This document shows, piece after piece, positions 5,389 to 52,391 of a stretch of DNA of 64,000 bases; position 1 is the stretch's first letter, and every line of letters starts with the position of its first letter. A program made the translations under genes and the position numbers. The notes beneath the pieces were generated by a model that made no database searches, was not told the origin of the DNA, and saw nothing but the letters and a program-made list of their open reading frames with translations. Source of the DNA: a virus. The DNA lies in the IMG/VR virus record IMGVR_UViG_3300025314_000012, one strand, 5' to 3'.

Positions 5389-8004
5389 TTATGGACACGT
5401 TATTGTATTAAAATCGTTATAATCTAATCCATTGCCGGAATTATATAGTGCTGATATTTCACCCACACACAACGCTCTTGACCATGTGGTGAATTGTTCT
5501 ATGTACCCACTATAATATTCACTTGTTGTATTAGGAATAGCACCAAATCCTGCATACCCATTATTTATAACAAATCTTCCTAAATTAGTTGAAGTAATAG
5601 ACGTGTCAAGTGTTCCGTTAAGATATAATTTAATATCGTATCCGTCTCTTACTATTGCAACATGATACCATGTTCCGCCAGACACAGAAGTTGTACTTAA
5701 ACAGGTGTCTGCATTTAGCTTCGTATCTGTCATATACAATCCTATTTTGTTGCCAACAAGTTTGACCAATATTTGTGCGCCAGATGTAGCCCTTACACCA
5801 CCGAGCGTTTTAGTTCCAGTTGTATTATTTGCGTTAAACCAAGTTGCAACAGTATATTGTCCGTTGCTATTAAGCATTGATCTTTGAGAACTATTATATA
5901 TTCTCGCAGGTGGAAAATATGCTGCTTGTTTTATAACTCCTGTTCCATAAGATACAATACCACCTGTACTCCAACTACCGCCATATATATTTCGTGAATC
6001 ATTCTTGTTGCCATTAAACTCATAACACGCCAATAGATTTCTAAGCAACGTTGGACTGTCTGGTACAGCAGGGGTTGTAACTGTTCCGCCGCTTACTTCA
6101 TATACAACAGTACCAGCGGCATCTAAACAACGATTTTCGTCTCTAAGGTCATATATCCGAAAATTATCAACCCTGCTTTCATAATCCCCCGTTCCCGTAA
6201 ATAAAATTCTTTGATTATGTAGATATAAATTACCTAACGGAAATGTTGTTCCAGATAGACAATATCCCTTGTCGGTAAGTGTCCCACAAATACTATCTGC
6301 GTTAACTGTATGAAGTTCATTTCTCGTAAATCCTGTTTGGTCTTTTTCCGAAACAGCAGAATAAGCTAAATATTGTGCGCCAATAGCACTTAAATTCTTA
6401 CACCCTGTCGTTACACTATAATCTGCTTCTGAATATCTTGACAGTATGCTACTTCTTACTGTTTCCGCTGTTTCATAGGTATCATTACATTCACTGTCCG
6501 TTAATCCGTTGGTAATAGTAGCTAACGTGAGTGTTATAACATACCCTGCATCGTTGTAATCAATATTGCCAGATGGGTGATAAGATATGGATTTAGTTGT
6601 CCAGTTATCTCCACAATTAACACCTATTCTTATGTTTCCGAAAATATATTTATAATGATTTATAGTGGTGTTATCGGAATCATAGTTGGTTATGTTTGCC
6701 CCACCCAATGCAGATACAAATTCATTTTTATACAACAAATAATCTGCCTCGTGAGTAAAACTAAAAGTTACAACATTAGACACTTTAGCTAAAGTCAATG
6801 TACCTGTTAAATTAACACAGGTACTTATGGGCTGTTTGCTATACGGTAGCGTAGCGTCTGTGTTTTCCAAGAAATCAAGTGTCATAGACGCAGACCTAAA
6901 ATCAAGCCCTGTATATGAGTTTTGATTTGAGGTTGTGTTTATGTTTTCTAAATATGTATGAAAATTATCGGTAAGAACACATTCTCCAACATTTCTTGTC
7001 CTCAAAACATATACACAATTCACTTCATCGTATAGTAATTGGGTTTCGTATGGGTCTATGTCAAATACAATAGGGTCACAAGTGGTACAATCAAATGTGT
7101 CAAGACATTTTGTTTTAAGCAACCAGTTTGTATTAGTATTTGTTGGTTGGTTATATGAAGGTGATATTTCTATTAAAAGATAGTTTCCTGTCGTGTAAGG
7201 AAAAGAAGATACATCTATAACATAGTTGAATCCAGCATATTGGTCTATTGCAACTGGTGATACTGAATAATTTGTGGAAGTATTGTCTTGCCCTACCACA
7301 AAATCACAAAGCTGAACAGGACTTTCTTCATCAGATATATCAACATAACTTATCTTTATTCTGTCAGACACAGTATAACCAGTGTATTCAAAGGCGAAAT
7401 AATTTGTTGTACTGCCAATATAATAATTAAAACTTCTCGATGCAAGTGATGGGTTTGGATTTGTACCATTATAGTTTACTTGATAACTGTAATCACCCGA
7501 AATATTACTTAACGAACAGTCCAATTGCAATACAGTTATTTCAGGAAGTACAGTTAAACCTATTAACTCACACCACGGTGCGCCCTCTGATGGATTGTTG
7601 TAAATCGTTGTATCGTTTATAATTATATATTTTATTTTTGGTTGCCACGTTCCTTCCGCTACTACCAGCTGGTTATCTCCTGTTAGTGGGTGTACAAAGG
7701 CTATATTAGGGTCTGTATTACCTGCATTTCCAGTAATAAATTCTGGTGTTAAACCACCGTTATAATACCACTCAATAGCATATCCTGTTATTGCACAACT
7801 CGTAGAAGTTAGACTTCCAACAGATATTCTCGCTATTTGGTTGTTTGTATAAGTGTCAAAAGCAAGGTCGTCACACCCACACAAGACTTCTGTTGTATCT
7901 GAAGGTATAGTATCTCCCATCCAAGTATAAGTACACCAAAAGTTCTGTGCATTTATGGTGAATACTGCAAACAGTAAGACTATGGATGATATTACTCTAT
8001 TCAT
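5389..8004 (-). CDS. Cys-rich exported protein with C-terminal LamG-like domain
   Basis: Signal peptide (FTINA|Q); LLACYEFNGN...WYHVAIVRDG...LYLNG...WSRALCVGEISALYNSG. Confidence 0.75.
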   Translation of the reverse strand: MNRVISSIVLLFAVFTINAQNFWCTYTWMGDTIPSDTTEVLCGCDDLAFDTYTNNQIARISVGSLTSTSCAITGYAIEWYYNGGLTPEFITGNAGNTDPNIAFVHPLTGDNQLVVAEGTWQPKIKYIIINDTTIYNNPSEGAPWCELIGLTVLPEITVLQLDCSLSNISGDYSYQVNYNGTNPNPSLASRSFNYYIGSTTNYFAFEYTGYTVSDRIKISYVDISDEESPVQLCDFVVGQDNTSTNYSVSPVAIDQYAGFNYVIDVSSFPYTTGNYLLIEISPSYNQPTNTNTNWLLKTKCLDTFDCTTCDPIVFDIDPYETQLLYDEVNCVYVLRTRNVGECVLTDNFHTYLENINTTSNQNSYTGLDFRSASMTLDFLENTDATLPYSKQPISTCVNLTGTLTLAKVSNVVTFSFTHEADYLLYKNEFVSALGGANITNYDSDNTTINHYKYIFGNIRIGVNCGDNWTTKSISYHPSGNIDYNDAGYVITLTLATITNGLTDSECNDTYETAETVRSSILSRYSEADYSVTTGCKNLSAIGAQYLAYSAVSEKDQTGFTRNELHTVNADSICGTLTDKGYCLSGTTFPLGNLYLHNQRILFTGTGDYESRVDNFRIYDLRDENRCLDAAGTVVYEVSGGTVTTPAVPDSPTLLRNLLACYEFNGNKNDSRNIYGGSWSTGGIVSYGTGVIKQAAYFPPARIYNSSQRSMLNSNGQYTVATWFNANNTTGTKTLGGVRATSGAQILVKLVGNKIGLYMTDTKLNADTCLSTTSVSGGTWYHVAIVRDGYDIKLYLNGTLDTSITSTNLGRFVINNGYAGFGAIPNTTSEYYSGYIEQFTTWSRALCVGEISALYNSGNGLDYNDFNTITCP

Positions 8005-38250: not shown

Positions 38251-41200
38251 TTATGCAAAATTCCAATAGTCCTCTGCGTTATACGAATCAGAATTATCGC
38301 TTAGCATTTCTTCTGCGTATGGAGTTTCTGCACCCATTAGACACATACCATGTGCTGTTAACCTATCATAGTGTCTCATCATCTCCATTCCAGTAATCTC
38401 CTTACATTCTTGTAGATATTCAGCAAATGCTTCCACGTGACACCTGTTTTCAAGGTAGTCCCTTGTTCTACTGAATAGCAATTGCTTAGACCTTTCCAAC
38501 GAATCACACCCCGCTTTTTCCTTGTATCTTCCTGTCTTTAAGTCTATGTCGTAAAGAAGATATGCTCCATATTCTTTTTCGATAAAATATCTAAGCGTTT
38601 CATCTAAGTTTGTTTCAGGGTACACCATCGCCCCAAAATATATCGCTGCCTTTAACGTATCTTCGTTAAACTCATTTGAATTTGCGGGTCTATGTCTGTA
38701 AGACAACACAAACTTATATGTGTCCCAATCTTTTATTTCCTTACCGCCATCAACTGATGGGTCGTATTTAAGTAGTATAGCTATACCACCGTCAGACAAC
38801 CTACTTTTCTTGCCAAGTGAAGCACCTGTCCGTGAATCCTGTTTTGTTCCGAACTTAAACGGGTCGCACCCTAACACGTACTTGTTTGGATACTGTGGTC
38901 GCCACATTGGAATATGTTTTCCCTTTATGGAACTATATGTGCTTATCTGTATTCTTTTATTAGATACGGCAGGACTTGGAAATTCACTTATCCTAAACCT
39001 ACCATTTTCTTCATCGTGTACAAATTCAACATCGCTTCCAAACCCGTTTACCCACACTAAATCACCACGCACTGTTTTGTCTTCTCTCCTTAATTCAGCA
39101 AGCCTTTCATCTATCCTTTCAAGTGGAAATCCTATTGAACCTGCTTCTCCTAACCAACAGTCTGCATACTTAATAGGGAACAATTTCTTTTCTTCCCTAT
39201 ATGCTCTCATGGATTCTGAATCACCACGCTGAAGTAACACGTCTCTTTTGCCCTGTAAAAATTCAAGTGCTGTCTGTGTGAATCCTTCTTCTCTCTGATA
39301 GTCCAATATCGTATCTTTAACCGAAAATCCATAGCTGTCAATAAACCCGTCAAGACCCTCTGTTGCGGGTATAAACAACCTAAATAGTCCAGAAAATGTT
39401 TGTCCGCTTGACTTTATCCTTTGATAAAAGTTTGACGTATTTGCCAAGAACCTGTAATCAAAACTACCATCCGTTAATTCATCACTCGTTGATGGATAGT
39501 CTAAGTATCCAAATATGATTCTTCCATTTCCTTGTGCGCAACAGTTCTTATTTACGTCATGGCGTTTTAATACACTGACATTGGAAGTATTGTGCGCTAC
39601 CGTATTGTCTTCCAATAAAAATCTTCTGTTTCCGTCTATAACAAATCCGTAATAATCACCAACGCCAATACTCTCTACCGAAAATCCTGTATGTAACGGA
39701 TTTCTCGTATTTGGATGATGCGGCTTTCTTTCGTATCTTTTCCTGTTTACCTTACACGGTATTCTCCACAAATCAAGTCCATATATAGAAACACGAAATA
39801 CCTCACATTCATAAACACTTCCGTCTTCTCTTTTCATTCTTGCAATCTTTGGATACATAGAACAACTAAATCCCAAATCAAGTGCAAGTCTTCTTATATT
39901 TTCGGCAAGAACTTTTCTTTTTTGTGTTACTTCATATCCTGTTCTATTGCCTGTATATGCGTATCCATCCGAATCAATTAATCCCGCTAATAAACTAAGT
40001 CTGTTTTCTTCTGAATCAAAAAGGTAATCTTTTGGAATATGTTTGTTACCTATAACACCTATCTTTCTTAATTCTTCTATTAAGCTAAAATTCTTTTGTT
40101 TAATTATCTCGTAACCACGATAATTGTCTTTTGTTTTTATAGTCCAATTTATAGAACTAATAGTAGTATCAAAATATGACGCTATTTCTCCTACTGAATA
40201 AAACACAAGTTCTTCTACACCATTATTAAAAAAATATGTATATTCTGATTTTCTGGATAGATGATATGTTATTTCATCCCTAACCATTTGAGTATCGTTT
40301 AATGATGAAAACTCTTTTAAATAATCAATTATTTCAATGTCTATATTCGTAATATTAACACCACCATGATACCCATCACCAAGCCACAATCCCAAAAAAT
40401 AAGGTTCTACTACGTGCTTGTTCTCTGTGTATTTGACTGGTTTCTTATACATAACAGATGCAAGTTTGTGTCTTGGTTTCATTTTAAGATATTCCTTTAT
40501 GGTTTTCTTAAAATAATCACCACCTCTAACTCCGGGTATGGCATTACCATCACTTGACTTCAAACATAATATATGCTCGCTGTTACAAGTCCACTCTTTC
40601 CCCTGATTTGGAATTATCTTATACATTTCGTCAACACCACGTGCTAACCTTAAAACATTTCTCGGCAAAGAATCATCCCCCATCAAAACATCCCCAACTC
40701 GTATATCTTCAACATTCTTTACAGAACCATCAAACATTCTTATTTCCGTTCCTTTTCCAAAACATTTTCCGGCTTCGTCAACAAGTAGGTATGTCATCTT
40801 TTTACCATCGAAATACTTCTCTGATGCCGTTGTTGCATACACAAATTTTGTTTGTAAGGAATCAACTGCGTATTCGTTTTTGCCTACATCGAATTTTAGT
40901 GAATCAGAAGTTCTACCCGAAGACGTAAACGGTTTTATCCATATAGGAAACTTATCAAACGATGGAAGAAGTTTCATCTTAAAATGTTCTTCTGCGTTAT
41001 CGTTACTATAACTTTGAATACCACCACCGTCTGTTCCTATCGTCCTTGTAATTACCTCAACTCCATTGCTAATTGACTTATTTGTATTTCCTGAACGCCT
41101 GTTCTTTGCCTGATGCTTTCCATAGCATATTCTTCTTGGCACGTGTTTGTTGCCAATCCTATCCACTAAGTTAATCATAGAATAAGTTCCGTCTTCATTA

Positions 41201-41763
41201 GGTACGGCAAATCCGTCTTTGTCTATCTTTTCAAATGTTTCGTTTGACGTATAGCAATAATCAACAAACAGATACTCTTTTCTATCTCTATCTCTATATC
41301 CGGGTCTGTCTTCACCCTCGTTGGTATCCATTCTCCACACGTTCAAATAAAAGAAGTGCTTTCCTGTAATGTATGTTGGTTTACCCATATTGTAAAACCA
41401 ATATCCATTCATTCTATGCCACCAAAATTTTCTTATGAAATTTATTTCGTTTTTAAAATCCTTATTCCTTTCGGTAAGCATTTCCCAAAACTTCTTCTGA
41501 ATTTTTAGTAGTGTTACAACATTGTTCTTATTGGTAGCCAATTCCTCTTTAACGGATTGTACCGCTTCTTCTTCCAAGTCAATTAATCTTCTTGGCACTT
41601 CCAATCTCTTAAATCGTTGGTCTTTGTAATAATCACCGTACCCATCAATGTATTTCAACGGTGGTGGTTCGGGTAGTTTCAACACGATTGGTCGCAAGTC
41701 GGGGTCATTATCATTTAACACCACGTACTTGTCAGCGGGTATATAGTCCTTTAGATTACTCAT
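38251..41763 (-). CDS. terL: terminase large subunit containing an intein
   Basis: KNRRSG Walker A region, LLVDEAGK Walker B, GCDPF RNase H-like nuclease, YDRLTAHG final acidic motif. Confidence 0.9.
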   Translation of the reverse strand: MSNLKDYIPADKYVVLNDNDPDLRPIVLKLPEPPPLKYIDGYGDYYKDQRFKRLEVPRRLIDLEEEAVQSVKEELATNKNNVVTLLKIQKKFWEMLTERNKDFKNEINFIRKFWWHRMNGYWFYNMGKPTYITGKHFFYLNVWRMDTNEGEDRPGYRDRDRKEYLFVDYCYTSNETFEKIDKDGFAVPNEDGTYSMINLVDRIGNKHVPRRICYGKHQAKNRRSGNTNKSISNGVEVITRTIGTDGGGIQSYSNDNAEEHFKMKLLPSFDKFPIWIKPFTSSGRTSDSLKFDVGKNEYAVDSLQTKFVYATTASEKYFDGKKMTYLLVDEAGKCFGKGTEIRMFDGSVKNVEDIRVGDVLMGDDSLPRNVLRLARGVDEMYKIIPNQGKEWTCNSEHILCLKSSDGNAIPGVRGGDYFKKTIKEYLKMKPRHKLASVMYKKPVKYTENKHVVEPYFLGLWLGDGYHGGVNITNIDIEIIDYLKEFSSLNDTQMVRDEITYHLSRKSEYTYFFNNGVEELVFYSVGEIASYFDTTISSINWTIKTKDNYRGYEIIKQKNFSLIEELRKIGVIGNKHIPKDYLFDSEENRLSLLAGLIDSDGYAYTGNRTGYEVTQKRKVLAENIRRLALDLGFSCSMYPKIARMKREDGSVYECEVFRVSIYGLDLWRIPCKVNRKRYERKPHHPNTRNPLHTGFSVESIGVGDYYGFVIDGNRRFLLEDNTVAHNTSNVSVLKRHDVNKNCCAQGNGRIIFGYLDYPSTSDELTDGSFDYRFLANTSNFYQRIKSSGQTFSGLFRLFIPATEGLDGFIDSYGFSVKDTILDYQREEGFTQTALEFLQGKRDVLLQRGDSESMRAYREEKKLFPIKYADCWLGEAGSIGFPLERIDERLAELRREDKTVRGDLVWVNGFGSDVEFVHDEENGRFRISEFPSPAVSNKRIQISTYSSIKGKHIPMWRPQYPNKYVLGCDPFKFGTKQDSRTGASLGKKSRLSDGGIAILLKYDPSVDGGKEIKDWDTYKFVLSYRHRPANSNEFNEDTLKAAIYFGAMVYPETNLDETLRYFIEKEYGAYLLYDIDLKTGRYKEKAGCDSLERSKQLLFSRTRDYLENRCHVEAFAEYLQECKEITGMEMMRHYDRLTAHGMCLMGAETPYAEEMLSDNSDSYNAEDYWNFA
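39589..40764 (-). mobile_element. intein with LAGLIDADG homing endonuclease (residues 334-725, 392 aa)
   Basis: Starts CFGKGT.IRMFDGS.K.VEDIRVGD; YFLGLWLGDG and LAGLIDSDG blocks; ends FLLEDNTVAHN followed by Thr. Confidence 0.9.
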
Positions 41764-45443: not shown

Positions 45444-46667
45444 TTAGTCTAAATACACATTTGTTAGTCTTTTACCACCACTATGAAAATACCACTGAAC
45501 ATCTCCATCGTTTCCTATTGCAAGTTCTTCCACACGCCCAAACCTGTTGTATGTTTTACACATATCAACAACATAAGCACTTTCTTTGTTTTTGTGTGGT
45601 CGCATTGCCCTACCTATCATCTGATAATACAATGCCAATGACCGTGTTGGTCTTGCAAGTAAAATAGTATCTAATTCAGGAAAGTCAAACCCTGTTGTCA
45701 ACACACCAACATTGGTTACTATTTTTATCTTTCCACTTCTAAAATCAGCTAATATTCGTTCTCTATCATTTTTTTTAGTTTGTGCTGATACTGTTTCGCA
45801 AATATCACCCAACTTATCTTTCACATAATTTGATTCTTCTACGAACTTTGTAAATATTAATATGTTCTTTCTTCCTGCTTTTAATAGCCTTTGTGCTAAA
45901 TTTACTATCTGTTCCTCAAAAGATATTTCTTTATAGTATTTTCTTACAGAATCATCCGTGTAATCCATCTTGGTAGAGTTTACAACAAGTTTATCTGTAT
46001 TGAACTCTACATTGGCATTGAAATATTCAATATCTGCCAAATATCCTTTATTGGATAATTCTTCTATTTGTGCGTAATATATTAAATCATAGAATACACG
46101 AGGTCGTGTCCGTGTGATGAATTTAAGCATAGTACCACCAAAGCCATCTATATTCATTCGGTATGGTGTTGCTGTTAGTCCTAATATCTTTTTAGTTCCT
46201 ATGCTACTAAGGAATCTTTTATACATACCTTCTTTTGCATTTACAAAATGGCACTCATCAATTATGACGTTGTCAAAATGCTTAAATGCGTTTACTCTGT
46301 TTATGGCACTACCAATGGTGGCATAAGTTACTTTTGATATTTGCTTTGAATTAAATGATGCACTGAATATACTCGCATCTATGAATTGGTCGTAACTAAG
46401 TAGTTTATTAAAGTTTTGTTCAAGAATTTCCTTAGACGGTTGGAATACAAGCGTGTGTCCTTGTATGTTTTTAACAATATTTGCTATTATAAGACTTTTA
46501 CCTGAACCTGTTGGTAATACCATTAACGCAGGATTCTTTCTTGCACCACTAAAAAAGTTTATAGCACTATCACACGCTTTTTCCTGATAGTCCCTTAATA
46601 TATAAGTACCATCTGAATTTGGTTCTGTAATTACTTCGTTTTCTATTACACTTTTAAAATTCTCCAT
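45444..46667 (-). CDS. superfamily 2 DExH helicase (UvsW/RadD-like)
   Basis: LRDYQ, LPTGSGKS, DECH, LTATP, VLTTGFD, QMIGRAMR motifs. Confidence 0.9.
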   Translation of the reverse strand: MENFKSVIENEVITEPNSDGTYILRDYQEKACDSAINFFSGARKNPALMVLPTGSGKSLIIANIVKNIQGHTLVFQPSKEILEQNFNKLLSYDQFIDASIFSASFNSKQISKVTYATIGSAINRVNAFKHFDNVIIDECHFVNAKEGMYKRFLSSIGTKKILGLTATPYRMNIDGFGGTMLKFITRTRPRVFYDLIYYAQIEELSNKGYLADIEYFNANVEFNTDKLVVNSTKMDYTDDSVRKYYKEISFEEQIVNLAQRLLKAGRKNILIFTKFVEESNYVKDKLGDICETVSAQTKKNDRERILADFRSGKIKIVTNVGVLTTGFDFPELDTILLARPTRSLALYYQMIGRAMRPHKNKESAYVVDMCKTYNRFGRVEELAIGNDGDVQWYFHSGGKRLTNVYLD

Positions 46668-48707: not shown

Positions 48708-48968
48708 ATGAAAGAGGACGAAAAATACAACACCGACATTGAAGTTTACAACTTAGTAAACGACATAAAGAACATAGATGATGAATCGTGTTTCTACTTT
48801 AGGATGAAAGGTAACAGCGTGAGTATTGGGTACACAGGACTTGACCACACGCTAATCACAGGCTTTATAACGTGTATGGAACAGTATAAAGAGTTGTATG
48901 ACATTATCAATTCATCCGTGTTGATTTACGAAGAAGAAAACATTACAAGTGACATACGCGCAAATTAA
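48708..48968 (+). CDS. hypothetical protein
   Basis: Directly after the -7 box at 48696-48703. Confidence 0.65.
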   Translation: MKEDEKYNTDIEVYNLVNDIKNIDDESCFYFRMKGNSVSIGYTGLDHTLITGFITCMEQYKELYDIINSSVLIYEEENITSDIRAN

Positions 48969-49278
48969 TCAGAAAAATATCCTGCTTCAAATGGAAGTGG
49001 ATATGATTGCCAACAAGTACGTGTTACTTCAACAGCACTACACGCTGATGTCTGCCACACAAACTTTTTGCGACTTCGACGTATATAATTCTTTTGGTTA
49101 TCTTGGGTGGTATGAGGACGTGATGAAGTTCATTTGTAAAAACCACAAAGAGATAAAAAGGAAGTTTACGATGGATGAGTTCATGGAATTTGCGTGGCAG
49201 TTCCGTGTGAAAAAACTATCGAAGTTCCCAATGGAAACGATGGCTGACTTTAAGAAAATAAAGATAAGAAATGCTTAG
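48949..49278 (+). CDS. hypothetical protein
   Basis: 109-aa ORF in the early operon. Confidence 0.55.
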   Translation: MTYAQINQKNILLQMEVDMIANKYVLLQQHYTLMSATQTFCDFDVYNSFGYLGWYEDVMKFICKNHKEIKRKFTMDEFMEFAWQFRVKKLSKFPMETMADFKKIKIRNA

Positions 49279-49355
49279 CTTTATTGAAACAAACTATCAC
49301 TAATTTTGCTCAATATCAACGTTTGTGATATTATGCAAACATAACGATATTAAAA

Positions 49356-49448
49356 ATGATAAACTTTTTCAATGTTGACAATTTGGGGTTTATGAAAAGT
49401 AAGCCAGATAAGTATTATGATTTGGCGATTGTTGTATCAAAACATTAA
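49356..49448 (+). pseudogene. truncated 5' fragment of a DNA methyltransferase
   Basis: MINFFNVDNLGFMKSKPDKYYDLAIV aligns 13/26 with the N-terminus of 50050..50703 and breaks just before DPPY. Confidence 0.75.
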
Positions 49449-49480
49449 TGTATATTTGTAATAAATTAAAACATTAATAA

Positions 49481-50068
49481 ATGATACGAGATTCAAAACA
49501 ATTGCAAATCGGAAAAGCTGGAGAATATTTGGTTTGTGCTGATTTAATTTTAAAAGGATTTATAGCATTTCCAAGTGAACAAGGACTACCTTATGATGTA
49601 CTTTTAGACACAGGAGAAAAACTATTGAGGGTTCAAGTAAAAACGACAGAAAGACCACGTTTAGTTAAACAAAGAAACACGCCAATACCTGCATATATTT
49701 TCAGTATTAAAAGGGCTGGAGCAAATGGCAAAACACGCTACAATGAAAACGAAATAGATTTATTCGCTTTGGTTTGTTTAGATACCATAAGTATTGGTTA
49801 TTTATTAAATAAAGAAATGCCAACAACAATAAATATAAGAGTTGATAGCGAGCGTGGTAAATATTACGATGAAAAAGGATTATTGGATTACAATCAGGCT
49901 ATAAAGCTACATGAAAACATAAAAAATAAATCAGAAATAGGGAGAATGTTAAATATACAACAGGCTGTTGTAAGTAAATATTTACAACCAAATTACATAC
50001 CTTTTAAAACAAATGCAAAGTATTTTTCAGAATTTAAAAAAGATAAATCATGGTTCCTGACTATATAA
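49481..50068 (+). CDS. PD-(D/E)XK homing-type endonuclease with C-terminal HTH-like segment
   Basis: GKAGEYLV..DL..G......PYD.LLD....L.RVQVKT pattern; own -7 box at 49451-49458. Confidence 0.75.
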   Translation: MIRDSKQLQIGKAGEYLVCADLILKGFIAFPSEQGLPYDVLLDTGEKLLRVQVKTTERPRLVKQRNTPIPAYIFSIKRAGANGKTRYNENEIDLFALVCLDTISIGYLLNKEMPTTINIRVDSERGKYYDEKGLLDYNQAIKLHENIKNKSEIGRMLNIQQAVVSKYLQPNYIPFKTNAKYFSEFKKDKSWFLTI

Positions 50069-50703
50069 GTAAATCGGAAAATAATACAATAAATTTTTAT
50101 AACTGTGACTGTATTGAATTTATGCGGTCTATTCCTGATAATTACTTTTCTATTGCCATTACAGACCCGCCCTATGGATTAGGTAACAAATTGACAAATG
50201 GTGGCACTTGGTCTGTAAAATGGCAGGATAAGGGTGCTGATTGGGATAAAACGCCAACAAAAGAATATTGGGAACAATTATTTAGGGTATCTAATAATTG
50301 GATTGTTTGGGGTGGAAATTACTTTATAGAGCATTTACCAAATTGTAGAAACTTTATTGCTTGGCATAAACCATATATGGATGGTATGCACTCCATGAGT
50401 AATGTAGAATTGGCTTTAACTTCTTTTGATAAAAACGCAAAAAAAGTATCATTCAATAAAGACAAAGGAACAGAATATAGGATTCATGTAACCCAAAAAC
50501 CAATCTCCCTATACCGTTGGCTACTCCAAAACTACGCAAAGATAGGAGATAAGATATTTGATTCACATGGAGGAAGCATGAGTTCGGCAATAGCTTGCGA
50601 CATGGAAGGATTCGACCTTGACATCTGTGAAATCGATAAAGATTACTTCGATGCTGGTGTAAACAGATTTAACGAATACAAAAGGCAGTTAACTCTATTT
50701 TAG
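50050..50703 (+). CDS. N6/N4 DNA methyltransferase (beta-class order)
   Basis: DPPY precedes H.TQKP..LY.WLL...IFDSHGGSMS. Confidence 0.9.
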   Translation: MVPDYISKSENNTINFYNCDCIEFMRSIPDNYFSIAITDPPYGLGNKLTNGGTWSVKWQDKGADWDKTPTKEYWEQLFRVSNNWIVWGGNYFIEHLPNCRNFIAWHKPYMDGMHSMSNVELALTSFDKNAKKVSFNKDKGTEYRIHVTQKPISLYRWLLQNYAKIGDKIFDSHGGSMSSAIACDMEGFDLDICEIDKDYFDAGVNRFNEYKRQLTLF

Positions 50704-51089
50704 TTCTTCTGAAATAAACTTCTCCTATCTATTTTAATATTTCCTAAGTGAGCATACATAGCACTCTGCATATTCTTTGCAAACTTTCCTACTTCTTTAC
50801 TTCTATCACGTGAATACTTCACCATTTCATCTTCTATTGCACAGAAGAACTTTAAAAATTCACCAAATTCAACAGCACCGTTATCCACGTCATATTCGAG
50901 TAAGAACTTTCTAAATTTCCTTCTACGGTTTTCATTCACCCACGCCCACAGTTTCCTGCAACCTTTCCAACCGTGTTCAATACCGAGTTCCTGCCGTTGG
51001 TCGCCATAGAGTTTAATTAAGCGTTCCGCCTCTTCGGGTGTGGTTTCTGTAACGTACTTTGCTAAAAGTTTTGTGTCGCTAATATTCAT
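50700..51089 (-). CDS. hypothetical protein, inverted in the early arm
   Basis: Own minus-strand -7 box TATATTTG at 51105-51112. Confidence 0.65.
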   Translation of the reverse strand: MNISDTKLLAKYVTETTPEEAERLIKLYGDQRQELGIEHGWKGCRKLWAWVNENRRRKFRKFLLEYDVDNGAVEFGEFLKFFCAIEDEMVKYSRDRSKEVGKFAKNMQSAMYAHLGNIKIDRRSLFQKN

Positions 51090-51204
51090 AATCTTTTTTT
51101 ACTACAAATATAGTAATAAATATTGCTCGATGTGTTGTAAAACATAAAAAATTATGCTCATTTATACGAATTATTCATTATCTTTGCAGAAAAAAAAGTT
51201 ATGG

Positions 51205-51334
51205 TAACGTATGGTGCTATACGATGTGGCGGACTTTCAGCAGAAAGCCCAATACGAAGCACCACAGTTTGAATTAGTAAAAATATTTAACCGAAGCACG
51301 TCACCCGCCATATTGTATATCACTTGTTAGCGGA
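51205..51334 (+). repeat. attC-like element D
   Basis: TAAC, 19-bp stem (51214-51232 / 51305-51323), GTTAGCGGA. Confidence 0.8.
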
Positions 51335-51362
51335 TGCCCTTCTTCATAAATCATAAATAAAA

Positions 51363-51542
51363 ATGAAAATAGCAGTAATAGTAACAGTTTGCCATCAAAT
51401 AGGAATAGAAACTTGGAAAGACTTTCACACTACAAAAGTGTTTGAAGAAAATTCAACCATTAAAGAGATTGATGATTGGATAAAATCAATTAATAAAAAT
51501 GCAAGTTTCTCAGATGCTAAAATCTCGTTGTGTGTCGATTAG
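51363..51542 (+). CDS. 59-aa cassette gene (not in ORF track)
   Basis: MKIAVIVTVCHQIGIETWKDFH...; flanked by GTTAGCGGA and TCCGCTAAC. Confidence 0.6.
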   Translation: MKIAVIVTVCHQIGIETWKDFHTTKVFEENSTIKEIDDWIKSINKNASFSDAKISLCVD

Positions 51543-51599
51543 GGTTTCCGCTAACAATCTGCTAAACGAATATTTTGTTATACAAAACTTTGTAAATGT

Positions 51600-52391
51600 T
51601 TGATTATGAAACTATCAGTAATAACAACTTCTTACAACAAGTGTGAAACACTAAAACACGCAATCGACAGCGTGATTAACAACTTAATCGGAATAGACTA
51701 TGAGTTAATAATCGTTGACGATGGAAGCACAGATGGCAGTGTGGATATAATCAATTCATACACCGATAGTAAAATTAAGAAGATATTCACACCGCACTAC
51801 GGAATGTTGAACGCCTACAAAGTAGCACTTGATAATGTAAGTGGTGATTACATTACTTTTTGTGATTGTGATGACTACAAGAATCGTGGACTAAAGTTTC
51901 AGTTTCTAATGATGGCAGCGTTTAACCATGACCTTACGTGTTCACGAGCATACATTGATAACGGTAAAATAATTAAGTCAGACACACCGATTGAAGTGTT
52001 GGAGGCAGGATTGGCTTACGACAATGTACTGAAAGGTAAGGCGTGTGTTCACGCACAAACGTTAATGATAAAAAAAGACTACTTTGACAAGTACATAGAC
52101 TTCGATAAGTTTTTAGACTTCAACGTGTGGGATTTACCGATACTACTTGAAGCTATACGCCACACCAAAATGGTATATTTCGATTTCTACACAGGAACGT
52201 ACCGTGTGGGTACAGAAACAGCTACCAAGACAGAAAGTCGCTTAAAAAGGCTAAAACTCGTGTTAGGATACATGAAAATAAAGCTGTGGTATATTAGAAG
52301 GTATGGTTGTAAACCAACCACGTTTACCTACATGATTTATAAATTTACAAGGGATATGGTGAGTATAATATTTAAAAGGTGGAATAAATGA
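51600..52391 (+). CDS. family 2 glycosyltransferase
   Basis: LSVITTSYN...AIDSV...YELIIVDDGSTDGS...YITFCDCDD. Confidence 0.9.
   Translation: MIMKLSVITTSYNKCETLKHAIDSVINNLIGIDYELIIVDDGSTDGSVDIINSYTDSKIKKIFTPHYGMLNAYKVALDNVSGDYITFCDCDDYKNRGLKFQFLMMAAFNHDLTCSRAYIDNGKIIKSDTPIEVLEAGLAYDNVLKGKACVHAQTLMIKKDYFDKYIDFDKFLDFNVWDLPILLEAIRHTKMVYFDFYTGTYRVGTETATKTESRLKRLKLVLGYMKIKLWYIRRYGCKPTTFTYMIYKFTRDMVSIIFKRWNK

Follow-up and report, generated by a model that had tools for sequence, protein, structure and literature searches.

Positions 49435–50163 of a 64,000-nucleotide viral DNA stretch (IMG/VR record IMGVR_UViG_3300025314_000012; the whole stretch is called the window here) probably form a free-standing homing-endonuclease cassette of roughly 730 bp, lying inside an orphan methyltransferase (MT) gene of a phage and supplying that gene with a replacement 5′ end. 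We put the probability of this reading, which is drawn from sequence comparison, at about 0.78. Insertion would have taken place after the Val codon of ...DLAIV and before the Asp codon of DPPY, and the cassette would comprise its own promoter, an I-Ssp6803I-type PD-(D/E)XK nuclease with a helix-turn-helix (HTH) tail, and a 38-codon MT front end with a start codon, the substitute front end reading in frame into the resident DPPY... body. The parts of the locus are as follows.

49356..49434 (+): orphan 5′ fragment of an MT gene, 26 codons and the first base (G) of the Asp codon; from reading of the open reading frame (ORF) and a 22/26 match to L176 and L195
49435..49480 (+): left end of the cassette with the −7 promoter motif TATATTTG; from motif comparison, promoter predicted
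49481..50068 (+): PD-(D/E)XK nuclease, 195 amino acids; from Pfam, invariant residues, an AlphaFold2 (AF2) model and Foldseek
50050..50163 (+): replacement MT 5′ end, 38 codons, ending SIAIT and not DLAIV; co-varies with the nuclease in relatives
50164..50703 (+): MT body, DPPY to stop; Pfam PF01555 (N6_N4_Mtase), PHROG DNA methyltransferase

Fragment, nuclease and MT all lie on the plus strand (region 48900–51900 read, with its ORFs listed). The fragment is contained in a 30-codon ORF at 49356–49448, which reads MINFFNVDNLGFMKSKPDKYYDLAIV followed by VSKH and a stop codon at 49446–49448. Its match to intact alleles, whose consensus at the junction is ...GCN ATT GTT GAY CCN CCN TAY, extends through codon 26 (GTT, to 49433) and stops with the G at 49434. 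The intact MT of the window (217 amino acids, 50050..50703) overlaps the 3′ end of the nuclease gene by 19 nt and reads ...INFYNCDCIEFMRSIPDNYFSIAIT-DPPYGLG, with the Asp codon beginning at 50164. It is of the beta-class N6/N4 type, in which motif IV comes first and motif I lies near the C-terminus. Its N-terminus and the fragment are identical at 13/25 aligned residues. A preliminary description of the window had proposed an orphan 26-codon MT N-terminus broken after GTT G at the Asp position, followed by an overlapping intact MT with a diverged equivalent N-terminus; the coordinates read directly bear out both.

Recurrence of the layout, empty sites and mosaic alleles

Searching IMG/VR with the window nuclease yielded 49 loci (loci and contigs are designated by L numbers). 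About 30 independent phage contigs, whose flanks are unrelated, show the order fragment–nuclease–full MT. A full MT follows the nuclease in most of the 49 loci. In about 25, the 240 nt preceding the nuclease, examined by tblastn and translated in three frames, contain an MT N-terminal fragment that ends in ...[DE]LAIV or a close variant at the point where DPPY would be expected. None of the nuclease loci has the window's flanking genes, and this presence in unrelated genomic contexts supports the earlier proposal of a mobile unit. The complete substitute N-terminus with its own ATG is kept in all loci. As expected of remnants, the fragments have decayed in some of them, being frameshifted, internally deleted or truncated in L005, L014, L020, L021 and L033/34 and absent from L010, L018 and L026. 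The L005 fragment (5836–5990) passes through a frameshift into a second ...DLAIV stretch (IDLAIV), and that of L033 (5895–5960) carries a clean 21-nt deletion (DKYYDLA) in otherwise 98% conserved sequence.

Several loci depart from the common geometry. The nuclease is inverted in L009 (5245–6663) between a fragment (−, 6663–6592) and a full MT (−, 5883–5245), giving a flipped cassette at the same position. A member of the same nuclease family sits at a DSPY-type MT subfamily in L036 (5900–7135), with its own orphan fragment (...IDFIW and a stop codon), and another adjoins a DIPY-type MT in L018 (6528–7288), with no fragment. In L015 (6525–6660) and L016/L017 (L016, 2292–2400) a catalytically intact nuclease stands beside an MT that is deleted save for its last ~25 codons (...ELDEVYYNAAVKRFEQH...LF and stop), and L008 has the fragment and the nuclease with no MT downstream. 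On the GC-rich contigs L041–L045, distant nuclease homologues follow directly after the C-terminal end of another MT (...DPFAGSGSTLIACEKTGR...), a geometry unlike that of the window.

Two pattern scans returned over 140 intact MTs with YFDLAIV or PDKYYDLAIV leading into DPPY; full-length MTs with PDKYYDLAIV joined directly to DPPY occur on 33 viral contigs. The intact MTs of L176 and L195 match the window fragment at 22/26 residues; at the nucleotide level L177 is the best match, with 80% identity over 74 nt. Because intact full-length MTs carry this sequence into DPPY and the layout recurs, the likeness of the fragment to MT N-termini is not a matter of chance. Relatives in which the fragment type continues into DPPY, the check that the preliminary description had proposed, are therefore at hand. 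Many phage contigs have two to five paralogues of this MT family in tandem (five in L089; two each in L062, L101, L114, L217, L225, L255, L269, L313 and L316). All of these have canonical DLAIV–DPPY junctions, so that one genome would present multiple potential targets.

The same site is polymorphic for presence or absence of the cassette in L026/L063, in L033/L170 and in L024 versus L070/L092. L026 and L063 have a common phage backbone with a filled and an empty site, respectively; their MTs are 64% identical in nucleotides before DPPY and 92–97% identical from about 20 nt past the Asp codon. The orphan fragment of L033 matches the N-terminus of the intact L170 MT at 51/52 nt (98%), whereas its inserted front end is 66% identical; identity then reaches 83% over the first 100 nt past DPPYG and 92–97% over the MT remainder and the downstream gene. 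This is the pattern expected of gene conversion from a cassette donor, with a stranded resident N-terminus and a co-conversion gradient. In line with the co-converted flanks suggested earlier, a co-conversion-like switch of identity at DPPYG is seen in both filled/empty pairs, in relatives only. The intact N-terminus of L070 has 88% identity to the L024 fragment; L092 is a nuclease-free, partly syntenic relative of L024.

For the window, the closest MT bodies (L275/L276, 80% amino acid identity) are nuclease-free and have canonical DLAIV N-termini, with nucleotide identities of 0.71–0.75 to the window fragment and 0.61–0.67 to the window front end. L275/L276 were rejected as the recipient allele, being too distant and only slightly closer to the fragment than to the front end. 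Among INPHARED phages the only matches were to MTs of Flavobacterium, Nonlabens and Streptococcus phages, short and with roughly 75% identity. No relatives of the window phage were found via its downstream neighbour (50700–51089, minus) in viral contigs or via its upstream neighbour (48949–49278) in metagenome contigs.

What travels with the nuclease was read from a DNA alignment of seven loci, the window and six loci of its nuclease clade. Nucleotide identity was 10–30% in the flanks, 54–79% in the orphan fragment, 70–89% in the nuclease, 74–87% in the new MT front end up to DPPY, 27–36% directly past DPPYG and 40–70% in the rest of the MT. Locus pairs with nuclease cores at least 85% identical had front ends 80–100% identical and MT bodies only 46–64% identical, the window's own front end being an exception. 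The 25 codons before DPPY thus go with the nuclease and the MT body is local, in keeping with the replacement 5′ end of the preliminary description. Cassette-linked MT bodies are nearest to nuclease-free MTs (amino acid identity 90% for L002–L084, 86% for L005–L124 and 96% for L026–L063), with further such matches for L033–L170 (93%) and L046–L109 (90%), while the N-termini of these nuclease-free MTs, which have the canonical ...DLAIV–DPPY junction, are only 52–68% identical to the cassette-linked ones. Mantel tests correlated nuclease identity with that of the front end (r 0.52) and of the MT body (r 0.36), both significantly; the pairwise identity lists are more informative than this correlation. 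On the nuclease-free contigs L275, L277, L279, L280, L282 and L283, nearly the same MT body (78–90% nucleotide identity) is found on very different canonical N-termini.

Nuclease, promoter motif and the codons before DPPY

The window nuclease belongs to Pfam family PDDEXK_5 (PF11645; 41.9 bits against a cutoff of 26.1, E 1.3e-10, residues 8–123). Residues E15, D39, Q52 and K54 are invariant across 30 homologues, and the E...D...(E/Q)xK pattern is present. A single-sequence phmmer search of PDB returned nothing; the I-Ssp6803I structure 2OST was reached only by a profile of the 30 homologues (E 0.006, matching at YD..LLKVQVK) and by fold search. With an AF2 model (pLDDT 88.7) as the query, the top four Foldseek hits were 2OST chains A–D (E 1.4e-6 to 1.3e-5; TM 0.52–0.64, normalised by target). 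Nuclease subunits of the SPARDA complex and archaeal Hjc resolvases ranked lower, and EcoRV lower still. The protein consists of an I-Ssp6803I-like core (about residues 1–125) and a helical C-terminal module (~130–195); shorter forms of about 153 amino acids without this module also occur. Pfam gave no match for the window nuclease's own C-terminal 71 residues, and the module is called HTH-like because the C-terminal modules of aligned relatives match many HTH families, each weakly. The family comprises 883 clusters at 50% identity (taken at E up to 1e-3), and its PHROGs entry is annotated 'unknown function'. A group I intron-encoded status was rejected for the window nuclease, which has no Rfam match within 49200–50400 at E up to 1, its own promoter motif and a free-standing ORF.

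Upstream of the nuclease, TATATTTG at 49451–49458 fits the Bacteroidota −7 consensus TAnnTTTG. This motif occurs 22–39 nt before the nuclease ATG in the window and in L001–L007; the distant nuclease loci L009, L010, L012, L018 and L019 have a TATAAT-type box at the promoter position instead. The cassette thus seems to bring a predicted, host-adapted promoter. The preliminary description had named both a PD-(D/E)XK gene after the fragment and a −7 motif at 49451; the former is upheld by the family score and the best fold match, and the latter by its conservation in the window's nuclease clade, as a predicted promoter.

The codons immediately before DPPY distinguish nuclease-linked from nuclease-free alleles. 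In independent MT samples, retrieved by body motifs only and hence unbiased for the N-terminus, 133/172 nuclease-free alleles (about 77%) end in [DE]LAIV, against 0/2 nuclease-linked ones. The nuclease-seeded loci gave 23 distinct cassette-linked alleles, all of them non-canonical and all altered in the three codons before DPPY. Their endings are SLALV, SLAFV, DLALV, DLACV, NLACV, QLACV, SLACV, FLALV, DLCIV, HLCVV, YLAIC, DLAIC, DLAIT and, in the window, SIAIT. The change extends to a synonymous shift of the Leu codon, which is TTR in 69% of free alleles and CTN in 87% of linked alleles.

On the simplest reading, the recognition site would span the Val/Asp junction, making the carrier immune and canonical alleles targets. 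The fragment would keep the left half of the site without the DPPY half, and the rebuilt gene would keep the DPPY half with a left half mutated in three codons (SIAIT in the window), so that both carrier copies would be immune to their own nuclease. A cassette-type or non-canonical front end with no upstream nuclease or fragment was seen in L201 (2380–2520, CDCMELLKQTPDNYYSLSIC) and in the L089/L210 MT at 913 (INFFNCDCIEFMRGKPDNCYDIAID), the latter being the closest match to the window's front end. These alleles may be resistant leftovers after nuclease loss, or products of front-end-only conversion.

Proposed mechanism and alternatives

We propose that, during co-infection, the nuclease cuts cassette-free MT alleles at ...GCN ATT GTN | GAY CCN CCN TAY GG, the bar marking the boundary between the Val and Asp codons. 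The break would be repaired from the cassette-bearing genome, with the orphan fragment serving as left homology arm and the MT body as right arm. Repair would copy in the nuclease and the new front end and strand the recipient's old N-terminus as an orphan fragment, and the MT would stay functional without an intron or intein. The MT body of the window is presumably of resident origin. Invasion at the conserved motif, with the host gene rebuilt without splicing, had been suggested in the preliminary description; recurrence, mosaic and filled/empty pairs support it, and from these patterns we infer cleavage and homing by the nuclease.

Several observations weigh against this reading. The window front end is only 44–52% identical to those of its nearest nuclease relatives, L002–L005, and its history therefore includes further recombination. 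The Mantel coefficients separate front end from body only modestly. Shuffling of N-terminus and body at DPPY occurs among nuclease-free alleles too, so the DPPY stretch may be a crossover hotspot of its own, and some of the mosaicism could have arisen with no double-strand break. The count of 0/23 overstates independence, because element-linked front ends share descent; about 14 distinct variants are represented. Finally, as no close relative of the window phage was found, the empty site and the co-conversion tract are seen only in other loci.

Nuclease and MT are adjacent, co-oriented and overlapping, PD-(D/E)XK is the classic restriction fold (with EcoRV in the lower Foldseek list), and the DPPY stretch looks like a general recombination hotspot. 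All this would suit a Type II restriction–modification pair that recombined into a resident orphan MT at DPPY and left the fragment as a by-product, an alternative that the preliminary description had raised. We judge it quite improbable. Near-identical nucleases (at least 85%) accompany very different MT bodies (46–64% identical), and the same bodies stand alone in other phages. The nuclease also outlasts its MT, remaining intact beside a deleted MT in L015 and L016/L017 and lacking one downstream in L008, although a protecting MT elsewhere in those genomes is possible. By fold and by family the nuclease matches a homing endonuclease best, rather than a restriction enzyme; every nuclease-linked MT copy is altered specifically at the insertion site; and in L009 the nuclease is inverted between fragment and MT.

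Ordinary homologous recombination at DPPY and in N-terminal stretches could also have spread a variant front end together with a linked nuclease of some other role (for example anti-competitor or repair), with no targeted cleavage. Such passive hitch-hiking draws on the shuffling at DPPY among nuclease-free alleles, yet we find it unlikely, since it leaves unexplained both the three-codon changes in all nuclease-linked copies, synonymous ones included, where free alleles are mostly canonical, and the exact same position of the nuclease in several MT subfamilies, including the DSPY type of L036. A true first exon is the remaining explanation of the fragment, with the nuclease in a self-splicing intron or bypassed in translation and ...DLAIV joined to DPPY. 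I-Ssp6803I is itself intron-encoded, and the fragment stops exactly at the codon boundary region before DPPY. Against these points, a search of 49200–50400 against Rfam at E up to 1 gave no intron or other RNA family, all loci retain a complete substitute N-terminus that is in frame and has its own ATG, and fragments are frameshifted, deleted or absent in L005, L010, L020, L021, L026 and L033 despite an intact MT, which makes splicing or bypass highly improbable.

Returning to the homing cassette, we think it fairly probable that the loci represent a large undescribed family of free-standing I-Ssp6803I-like homing endonucleases specialised on motif IV of phage MT genes, spreading as a gene-rebuilding cassette with 5′ end and promoter and with immunity split over two half-sites. 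An element that occupies the catalytic motif and carries a replacement for the gene part that it cuts off would, if this is true, represent a third way, besides introns and inteins, to occupy a gene's catalytic core without killing the gene, and would be a driver of N-terminus/body shuffling across this MT family. If cleavage is confirmed, the family would provide natural long-site PD-(D/E)XK nucleases with inferable targets, canonical and immune alleles both being in hand, and would account for some of the extensive mosaicism seen among phage orphan methylases. Annotators could then treat a short 'MT N-terminus' ORF preceding a PDDEXK_5 gene as a remnant and not as a gene in its own right.

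The window contig is phage-like: its products include a helicase, tail or fibre-like proteins and a large terminase that contains an intein. The cassette lies in an early-gene region flanked by a family-2 glycosyltransferase (51600–52391, +) and a ResIII/SNF2-type helicase (45444–46667, −). The 1169-residue large terminase subunit (38251–41763, −; PHROG 6681) is interrupted by a LAGLIDADG-bearing intein (Pfam Hom_end_hint, Hom_end and LAGLIDADG_3), a second and unrelated homing element of the same phage.

Comparison with known systems

Homing endonucleases usually spare the genes that they invade by residing in introns, inteins or intergenic sites. In T4-like phages, free-standing homing endonucleases (seg/mob) are held to spread through cleavage of nuclease-free alleles of a neighbouring or invaded gene, with co-conversion of flanks, and in the MobA/gene 60 cassette the extra sequence travelling with MobA keeps the split host gene usable. 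The seg/mob and MobA enzymes are of the GIY-YIG or HNH type and sit between genes, or split a gene into two polypeptides or a bypass, whereas the window nuclease is a PD-(D/E)XK enzyme. We know of no T4-type free-standing homing endonuclease that supplies a substitute 5′ coding end.

To our knowledge, the PD-(D/E)XK homing family rests so far on one characterised enzyme. This is I-Ssp6803I (PDB 2OST; Zhao et al. 2007, as cited in PMC3384342), which is encoded by a group I intron of tRNA-fMet in Synechocystis; its close homologues are mostly cyanobacterial according to a 2012 review. It shares the Pfam family PDDEXK_5 with the window nuclease, is its best profile and fold match and aligns with it at YD...VQVK. 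The window nuclease differs in being free-standing, in its extra C-terminal HTH-like module and in its protein-coding MT target, and identity is about 15%.

Actinophage methylases have been reported as targets of an intein, a homing endonuclease and a ShiLan domain, or ShiLan/HNH element (Gosselin et al., PMC9957025, PMC11855218). Intein and ShiLan are reported to lie in frame within the methylase, and the third element is described only as 'likely a second homing endonuclease'. The likeness to our loci lies in orphan methylases recurrently hit by homing elements at conserved sites, in within-gene recombination and in horizontal transfer. The window cassette is unlike those elements in that it has its nuclease as a gene of its own, involves no read-through and duplicates the MT 5′ end.

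A functional analogy is offered by the mobile-ORF 'gene hybrids' of fungal mitochondria (Allomyces atp6, Paquin et al. 1994; Glomus atp6, atp9, cox2 and nad3, PMC3630166). There, an endonuclease ORF brings a foreign duplicate of the end of the host gene, producing a working hybrid and stranding the native end, which is nearer to close relatives than the inserted copy is (PMC3630166). The L033 fragment and inserted front end, with their 98% and 66% identity to the L170 N-terminus, resemble this functionally only. The mitochondrial hybrids are found in organelles and replace a 3′ end, whereas the window cassette is found in a phage and replaces a 5′ end, for which it needs its own start codon and promoter. 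We found no literature documenting the spare-end trick, known from fungal mitochondrial 3′ ends, at 5′ ends, in phages or in the PD-(D/E)XK homing family. What appears to be new, as supported by the comparisons above, is a free-standing homing cassette whose nuclease is of the PD-(D/E)XK type and which replaces the 5′ end of its host gene.

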